IMG/VR virus record: IMGVR_UViG_648028025_000010
DNA from: a virus
Lineage: Duplodnaviria; Heunggongvirae; Uroviricota; Caudoviricetes
Direction: 5' to 3' (one strand)
DNA length: 64,000 nucleotides
Shown here: piece by piece, positions 59,579 to 59,823 of the stretch
How the letters are laid out: the number at the start of each line of letters is the position of its first letter
How positions within the stretch are numbered: position 1 is the first letter of the stretch
Program-made: the position numbers and the translations under genes
The notes under the pieces: model-generated
Database searches by the model: none
What the model saw: only the letters and a program-made list of their open reading frames with translations
Told to the model about the DNA's origin: nothing

Positions 59579-59624
59579 TCTGTCCCCCTCTCCTGTCTGA
59601 TGTCTGAATCTGTTTATGCCCCAA

Positions 59625-59811
59625 AAACGACAGGCACCCCGGAGGGTGCCTGTGTCATGACGGAATAAAATTTCTGAATTTCTTCACATTTTCTGTACGC
59701 CCCCGTGGCAGATATCATTCCCGGGCGTTACAGTTTTTTCGGGCCAATAAAAACAAAACTCCCTGTGGTTAATCTTCATTTTCTGTTCCCGCAGCCTTCG
59801 GTCACTGCGGG
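59625..59811. other. 245-bp intergenic insert between I and J of prophage 2 containing two opposed terminator-like hairpins
   Basis: Hairpin caggcaccc-cgga-gggtgcctg at about 59630-59656 (U-tract on minus strand) and cccgcag-ccttcggtcact-gcggg followed by T6 on the plus strand at 59788-59817. The corresponding gap in prophage 1 is 16 bp. Confidence 0.4.
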
Positions 59812-59823
59812 ATTTTTTCGCTT

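Follow-up and report, generated by a model that had tools for sequence, protein, structure and literature searches.

A predicted small RNA gene of the PasB/EcOnc22 family in the I-J tail gene gap of a lambdoid prophage

We analysed a 64,000-nt viral sequence (IMG/VR record IMGVR_UViG_648028025_000010; the whole stretch is called the window below) that carries two prophages and is 100% identical to O26 strains (for example, RM8426). Our subject is the gap between tail assembly gene I and the tail tip and host-specificity gene J of prophage 2, where the tail genes lie on the minus strand. The gap extends over 245 bp (59579-59823), from the I stop codon (TAA, 59826-59824) to the J start codon (GTG, 59578-59576), and an identical copy annotated by the NCBI pipeline has the same limits. 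It contains two opposed terminator-like hairpins, between which G+C content is 41%, against 58-60% in I and J. Both the length of the gap and the two hairpins had been noticed in a first-pass annotation made from the sequence alone; the positions of the I stop and J start bear out the former, and sequence, terminator scanning and folding confirm that the latter are real. Our analysis indicates that the plus-strand hairpin very probably ends a small RNA (sRNA) gene at 59740-59818, a diverged and unannotated member of the PasB/EcOnc22-24 sRNA family, which in homologous prophages occupies the same slot.

A predicted plus-strand small RNA gene

The family covariance model, built from 28 family members with the window's own sequence among them, has a single match in the window (59740-59819, plus strand, 69.9 bits). 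The predicted RNA would comprise, in order, a class-specific A-rich 5' part, a CU-rich ACUCCYU motif, the element GUUAAUCUUCAU and a CCCGCAG/CUGCGGG hairpin with six terminal U residues. Its 3' end would lie 5 nt short of the I stop codon and more than 160 nt from the J start, so placed that it overlaps no coding sequence or ribosome-binding site. The hairpin ((U)CCCGCAG...CTGCGGG(A), 59787-59812) has a stem of 7-8 bp and runs into T6 (59813-59818), longer than the four U residues asked of a family terminator; a terminator consensus scan returned only a weaker, overlapping hairpin at 59807-59821. Covariance searching across homologous prophages, as the first-pass annotation had proposed, found the terminator helix conserved (99% paired over 29 distinct homologs, with compensatory changes in two of its seven pairs), and it is the only helix that RNAalifold predicts in the family. 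Upstream of it, the most conserved unpaired positions form a core that is a candidate seed combined with a U-rich Hfq-binding module. The first-pass annotation had read the hairpin and T6 as directed against the tail operon and had suggested a small-RNA moron on the plus strand; the same-slot homologs PasB and EcOnc22-24 support that suggestion, with the hairpin as the terminator of the predicted sRNA gene. Of the plus-strand RNA of 100-150 nt ending near 59817 that it had anticipated, the end agrees with our prediction and the length does not, homologs pointing to ~80 nt.

The 5' end of the RNA was placed by comparison with two mapped relatives. Every class of the family has a TAnnnT hexamer at this position (TACAGT in the window; TAGTGT, TACTTT, TAATGT or TACCGT in others). 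In PasB of enteropathogenic Escherichia coli (EPEC), the 5' end determined by RNA sequencing (RNA-seq) lies 6 nt after the homologous TAGTGT, and the Hfq-crosslinking peak of strain Sakai, corrected for a coordinate shift described below, begins 6 nt after TACTTT. Because both fall at the same distance, a promoter with TACAGT as its -10 element would start the window RNA at about 59740/59741. The 5' end of the EPEC homolog thus puts the predicted -10 element at ~59729-59734 instead of around 59660-59700, where a promoter had been expected at first pass. A second -10-like hexamer, TATCAT (59713-59718), may act as an alternative upstream promoter; a start from it would give an RNA of ~96 nt, a poorer fit to the mapped 5' end.

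The closest experimentally characterised counterpart is PasB of EPEC O127:H6 E2348/69, an 83-nt RNA of prophage PP6 (NC_011601, 1466343-1466261, minus strand) located between E2348C_1436 and E2348C_1437, antisense to both, and detected with Northern probe AATCCCGCAGTGATCGCGGAGCT (PMC8550237, Table S6). These neighbours are gene I (E2348C_1436, ending at 1466255) and gene J (E2348C_1437, starting at 1466496). PasB depends on Hfq (log2 fold changes in an hfq deletion mutant of -6.8 in Dulbecco-modified Eagle medium (DMEM) and -2.4 in lysogeny broth (LB)) and has 37 partners by RIL-seq, which captures RNA-RNA interactions on Hfq; it stands second in 98% or more of the chimeric fragments that contain it (PMC8550237). 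The EPEC and window I-J gaps align at 84% identity, and the two RNAs share the slot, the antisense orientation, the core motifs, the position of the -10 hexamer and a homologous terminator (CTGCGGGAUUUUUUU), with CUGCGGGAUUUUUU at the end in both; homology extends to the flanking block and the J-proximal hairpin. They differ in that identity over the RNA itself is only ~75%, with a longest common exact word of 17 nt, and in that the 5' third diverges (CGGGCCAAUAAAAACAAAA in the window against UGCCCGAGUAACAAAAACA in PasB).

Three further relatives come from O157:H7 strain Sakai, in which EcOnc22, EcOnc23 and EcOnc24 were reported as homologous plus-strand Hfq-crosslinking peaks in prophages Sp15, Sp14 and Sp11, with EcOnc22 seen as an RNA of ~85 nt by Northern blotting and destabilised without hfq (PMC4104026, Table S2). 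In the current Sakai record, their coordinates fall in the I-J gaps of Sp15, Sp14 and Sp11. The published coordinates refer to an older genome version and, used uncorrected, land ~140 nt from the PasB-like sequence. AgvB, located through Rfam, lies at 1941920-1941981 in the current version against a published peak at 1941783-1941835, and a shift of +128 would leave EcOnc10 and EcOnc11, two opposite-strand copies of one repeat, misaligned by 19 nt. Because the AgvB offset and the EcOnc10/EcOnc11 register both fit it, we place the shift to NC_002695.2 at about +137, at least between 1.94 and 2.23 Mb. Thus corrected, the EcOnc22 peak (2902851-2902911) reads ugccugaaaaauaacuccauaacguuaaucuucaucguucucucccgcagcuccgcuaacu and extends over the homologous RNA, starting at the predicted 5' end and stopping within the terminator loop. 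At face value, by contrast, the coordinates would have the peak lie antisense to the J-proximal hairpin, a place that makes no sense for an 85-nt RNA; the shift resolves the conflict. Because the shifted peak falls on the homologous RNA body, PasB and EcOnc22-24 appear to be one family and the same kind of gene. The window RNA resembles EcOnc22-24 in its plus-strand location in a lambda-like I-J gap, its homologous locus and its core and terminator; it represents a third sequence class, ~73% identical to the EcOnc22 type. Overall, the window and homolog gaps are 84-88% identical, and over ~82 nt the RNA matches PasB at 75% and the Sakai RNA at 73%.

The family also bears comparison with the anti-sRNAs AgvB and AsxR, which are likewise short, prophage-encoded and Hfq-bound, combine a conserved 3' scaffold with variable 5' ends and occupy an antisense moron slot in the late region (PMC4104026). 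Those RNAs are 51-60 nt long and lie downstream of PR', near stx and the lysis genes. Membership in that group was considered and rejected for the window RNA, which lies in the tail operon and matches neither RF02702 nor RF02703.

Considered together, the segment from ~59654 to 59823 would form one module, a small-RNA moron transcribed against the late operon. By analogy with its homologs, the RNA would be made in the lysogen from its own promoter, be stabilised by Hfq and pair in trans with mRNAs. Like the morons of lambdoid phages (Juhala et al. 2000, as cited in PMC4104026), which are also autonomous units between two late genes, it has a predicted promoter and terminator, is absent from the lambda type and is poorer in G+C than its neighbours; it differs in carrying a non-coding RNA as cargo and in pointing against the late operon. 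The features of the gap and its flanking genes are collected in Table 1.

Table 1. Features of the prophage 2 I-J gap and flanking genes, in window coordinates.
Feature	Position	Strand	Remarks
Tail tip / host-specificity gene J	56102..59578	-	GTG start
J leader	59579..59622	-	Shine-Dalgarno region GGAGAGGGGGA at 59593-59583
Sense-strand intrinsic-terminator-like hairpin	59623..59653	-	~45 nt upstream of J start; scan and fold
CRP-like site TCTGA-ATTTCT-TCACA (minus strand: TGTGA-N6-TCAGA)	59673..59688	.	Hypothetical regulator site
Second -10-like hexamer TATCAT	59713..59718	+	Alignment: TATAAT in EPEC, AATAAT in Sakai
Predicted -10 hexamer TACAGT	59729..59734	+	TAnnnT in every class, preceded by GCGT
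Predicted PasB/EcOnc22-family sRNA gene, ~79 nt	59740..59818	+	Covariance model and homology; antisense to tail operon, wholly intergenic
Conserved core: CU-rich, anti-Shine-Dalgarno-like ACUCCCU, then GUUAAUCUUCAU	59759..59781	+	Most conserved unpaired positions, ~8 classes
Predicted Rho-independent terminator, stem UCCCGCAG/CUGCGGGA and U6	59787..59818	+	Fold; homologous stem covered by EPEC Northern probe AATCCCGCAGTGA...
Tail assembly gene I	59824..60504	-	NCBI pipeline calls a shorter, 582-bp version with the same stop

A conserved block upstream of the RNA gene

The most conserved part of the I-J gap lies outside the predicted RNA, at 59654-59700, and holds a sequence resembling a binding site for CRP. 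Its two half-sites are 99-100% conserved and the 6-bp spacer varies (ATTTCT, AACTCT, ATATCT, AATTCT or GTTTAT), which suggests a protein binding site rather than an RNA element. Despite divergence of the 40 bp between this site and the TAnnnT hexamer, 33 of 34 distinct variants keep the same spacing.

Naturally recombined loci show with which neighbour the block travels. Variants with a 342-bp gap keep the sRNA gene and the CRP block and have the J-proximal hairpin replaced (loci L162, L172, L181, L182, L184, L187, L192, L204 and L207 of our collection); they switch at ...AATTTTTAT to an unrelated 170 bp with a different J leader, and those 170 bp carry a terminator-like hairpin of their own (AAAACCCCGGTATC...GATACCGGGGTTT). 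In 15 of 80 loci selected by J sequence alone, the space between the sRNA gene and J holds sodC, an antisense gene for Cu/Zn superoxide dismutase (PF00080); here the sRNA gene and its -10 hexamer are kept, and the CRP block, the hairpin and everything upstream are replaced. In the sodC loci, including L130, L133-L135 and L138, the I-J gap measures ~850 bp and the breakpoint lies just upstream of the -10 hexamer. One J-selected locus has an IS3-family insertion. Because recombinants move the block with the sRNA gene and not with J, it is most likely the regulatory region of the sRNA gene, with a CRP site, and we propose control of the sRNA by cyclic AMP (cAMP)-CRP as a hypothesis. PasB levels in EPEC are higher in static overnight LB cultures than in DMEM at mid-log phase (PMC8550237), and overnight LB is a condition in which the CRP-repressed Spf is ~5-fold lower; the rise is consistent with CRP control and is unspecific.

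Several observations weigh against assigning the locus to the PasB/EcOnc22-24 family with a CRP-controlled promoter. The 5' end of the sRNA is placed by homology; a simple sigma-70 scan of the window gave no promoter here, and the -35 region is poor. For EcOnc22, the mapping hinges on a coordinate shift that we deduced from other loci, not on the older genome record itself. The compensatory changes in the terminator belong to one divergent lineage only, and the body of the RNA has no significant structure of its own (z-score -0.63), as is expected for the seed region of an Hfq-dependent RNA. The CRP-like site differs from TGTGA-N6-TCACA at one position; the window has no second match with so few mismatches, and 2.3 matches of this quality are expected by chance window-wide. 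The centre of the site, at -59.5 to -60.5 from the predicted start, is 1-2 bp closer than the -61.5 canonical for class I CRP-dependent promoters, and a Cra-type reading (TGAA-N4-TTCA) fits the same bases.

The lambda-type junction and alternative readings

The other hairpin, on the minus strand, was assigned by the first-pass annotation to the same insert. Comparison with prophage 1 argues otherwise. The I-J gap of that prophage had been given as 16 bp, a value that stems from a mechanically called GTG start at 11471, which with the I stop at 11487-11489 would leave 15 bp. Because prophage 1 J aligns with lambda J only from the ATG at 11426 (its N-terminus being identical to that of lambda J), the true gap spans 11427-11486 and, like those of lambda and phage 434, measures 60 bp. 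It holds a sense-strand hairpin, AAACCGCC-TCCG-GGCGGTTT followed by TGTCGTTT (11449-11468, minus strand), and the I-J region of phage 434 (OL657226), which matches that of prophage 1 at 95%, has an annotated terminator at 15466-15485 inside its own 60-bp gap. The J start of lambda-type prophages is thus easily called 45 nt too far upstream.

In prophage 2, the corresponding hairpin is ACAGGCACCC-TCCG-GGGTGCCTGT (RNA arm GGGUGCCUGU; 59653-59630), followed by CGTTTTT and returned by the terminator scan. With a 10-bp stem that includes 7 G-C pairs, a 4-nt UCCG loop and a CGUUUUU tail, it fits the pattern of an intrinsic terminator, and it supplies most of the energy of the 86-nt minus-strand fold (centroid -25.1 kcal/mol, z-score -2.65); one stem pair alternates between C:G and U:A (4 of 14 variants). 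The stem sequence differs from that of the lambda type (ACAGGCACCC against AAACCGCC), and in prophage 2 the hairpin is parted from the I stop by the ~185-bp sRNA module. Its position just upstream of the J ribosome-binding site, the UCCG loop and the GUCGUUU tail are shared with the lambda type, and we therefore regard it as an ancestral feature of the lambda-type I-J junction that lies outside the insert, the lambda type having the hairpin alone; the extra DNA in prophage 2 comes to ~185 bp. Between the hairpin and J, directly 5' of the J Shine-Dalgarno region, a 7-nt tandem repeat (TCAGACA in the sense direction, TGTCTGA on the plus strand; two copies at 59594-59607) varies from one to five copies among homologs, changing the length of the J leader.

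RNA polymerase modified by the lambda Q protein reads through intrinsic terminators. The stretch 59579-59653 would be an ordinary lambda-type junction, a sense-strand terminator-like hairpin followed by the J ribosome-binding site; given such read-through, the hairpin would stop stray transcription from entering J in the lysogen and be bypassed in lytic growth.

The same hairpin could instead end a second, sense-strand sRNA, with the conserved 45 nt upstream as its body, or attenuate expression of J. Attenuation, raised at first pass, has no specific support. For an sRNA speak the layout (a single-stranded A/U-rich stretch leading into a strong GC hairpin with a U5 tract), the conservation of the upstream block, the highest in the gap, and the covarying stem pair. 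Against it, family alignments contain no conserved minus-strand -10-like element with the key final T, as a divergent promoter would have, the Sakai loci have no minus-strand EcOnc peak here, and the EPEC RIL-seq entries listed include no intergenic one next to pasB. The 60-bp lambda-type gap, moreover, has the hairpin and lacks the upstream block, the 342-bp variants retain that block alongside the sRNA gene while the hairpin is replaced, and the pattern of fixed half-sites around a variable spacer suggests a protein site. We consider this explanation unlikely.

Somewhat less likely still is that the plus-strand RNA acts mainly in cis, pairing with the I-J spacer of the late mRNA so as to direct cleavage or hinder late transcription, and thereby tuning J relative to the upstream tail genes. 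Its convergent orientation, its full complementarity to the spacer and its fixed position between I and J (76 of the 80 J-selected loci) would suit such a role. However, EPEC PasB behaves as a trans-acting RNA, with its many partners on Hfq; no coding sequence or ribosome-binding site is overlapped; and sodC-type loci have ~600 bp more between the RNA and J. Predicted pairing between the sRNA core and the J leader, examined with RNAduplex and rejected, had energies no better than those of shuffled sequences in two of three classes.

That the insert is a decayed, functionless remnant or a short coding moron is very improbable: although no RefSeq or phage record annotates it and a 31-codon minus-strand open reading frame exists (MKIN..., 59779-59684), the element is kept in hundreds of genomes and in Shiga toxin (Stx) phages with a conserved core, terminator and promoter hexamer, its homologs PasB and EcOnc22 are expressed, and the reading frame, as the first-pass annotation had judged in finding none credible between the hairpins, is unconserved, its ATG being lost to ACG or ACA in other classes and its frame broken by 1-nt indels, with lengths of ~17-39 codons among homologs.

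Classes and distribution of the family

The preferred reading, a member of the PasB/EcOnc22-24 family, was followed through related prophages in loci collected in two ways: with a 23-nt anchor (120 loci) and with the J N-terminus (80 loci, all at least 94% identical, chosen without regard to intergenic sequence). Of the 80 J-selected loci, 76 match the family model, in every case antisense to J. Together, the loci yield ~50 distinct RNA sequences in ~8 classes. The window, EPEC and Sakai classes are 73-75% identical pairwise and have no common exact word longer than 17 nt. Conserved throughout the family are GCGT with the TAnnnT hexamer, a T-run, the CU-rich AAYUCYYU, GUUAAUCUUCRU and the terminator; variable parts are the first ~20 nt and the loop of the terminator hairpin.

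Matches to the 245-bp gap came from 147 phage records, every one a Stx-converting or Escherichia/Enterobacteria phage; 135 of these records match across 80% or more of the gap, and 88 reach at least 95% identity. Among E. coli genome records, 784 have a match, at a median of 4 places each, and in 495 it covers 80% or more of the gap. Counted in 5,426 complete E. coli genomes, the window class occurs in 463 genomes at 1,544 places (median 3, maximum 8), the Sakai class in 542 genomes at 1,246 places (median 2, maximum 6) and PasB in the strict sense in 955 genomes at 998 places (median 1, maximum 3). In a collection with one genome per species, the sole match to the 23-nt anchor is a 460-bp contig (NZ_FWPT01000051.1) labelled Parendozoicomonas haliclonae, which is most likely E. 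coli prophage contamination; the anchor scan therefore says nothing on species breadth.

Annotation of the element is absent from every RefSeq and phage record examined and, for the window class, from all 463 genomes that carry a copy. An Rfam scan of 59450-59950 gave no match, even at an E-value of 10. Elsewhere in the window, matches at the Rfam gathering score were the DicF sRNA (42774-42825, plus strand), two cspA-type thermoregulator leaders (28845-29230 and 31740-32132, both minus strand) and IS009 (3777-3975, minus strand) in the tail-fibre region of prophage 1.

A recent survey of PasB used blastn with a word size of 28 and query coverage above 75%, and reported few variants of the gene and essentially one copy per genome (Zhu, Shabalina and Storz 2026, bioRxiv 10.64898/2026.05.13.724894). 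The window RNA falls outside that definition, sharing no 28-nt exact word with E2348/69 PasB, and its class was missed because the longest common word, 17 nt, is shorter than the word size. PasB and EcOnc22-24 were already known as experimentally detected prophage sRNAs. The Pas papers draw no connection between them (the corresponding note in Table S6 of PMC8550237 is blank, and 'EcOnc' is absent from the 2026 preprint); what is new here is that connection, the diversity of classes and their multi-copy nature, the modular map of the junction and a testable CRP hypothesis.

These results lead us to a broader picture, which we put forward tentatively and regard as doubtful in its full extent: the I-J slot of lambdoid prophages in Shiga toxin-producing E. 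coli (STEC) and EPEC may house one diversifying, multi-copy sRNA family (PasB, EcOnc22-24, the window class and at least five more) with a common Hfq scaffold and an anti-Shine-Dalgarno-like core, differing 5' parts, and up to 8 paralogs per genome possibly with different targets, all perhaps wired to carbon status through the CRP-type site. If so, the published PasB survey would cover about one-quarter of the family copies counted (998 of ~3,800, over three classes), and further classes such as the O26 one would add ~2,800 gene copies in the 5,426 complete genomes. Published EcOnc coordinates, used uncorrected, point to the wrong sequence. The locus itself, with neither an annotation nor an Rfam model, would encode an RNA related to two Hfq-dependent sRNAs that experiments have detected in major pathogens. 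The presence of several paralogs per STEC strain matters for the design of knock-outs and for multi-mapping reads in RNA-seq and in crosslinking and immunoprecipitation data, and cAMP-CRP control offers a testable hypothesis for the regulation of the sRNA.

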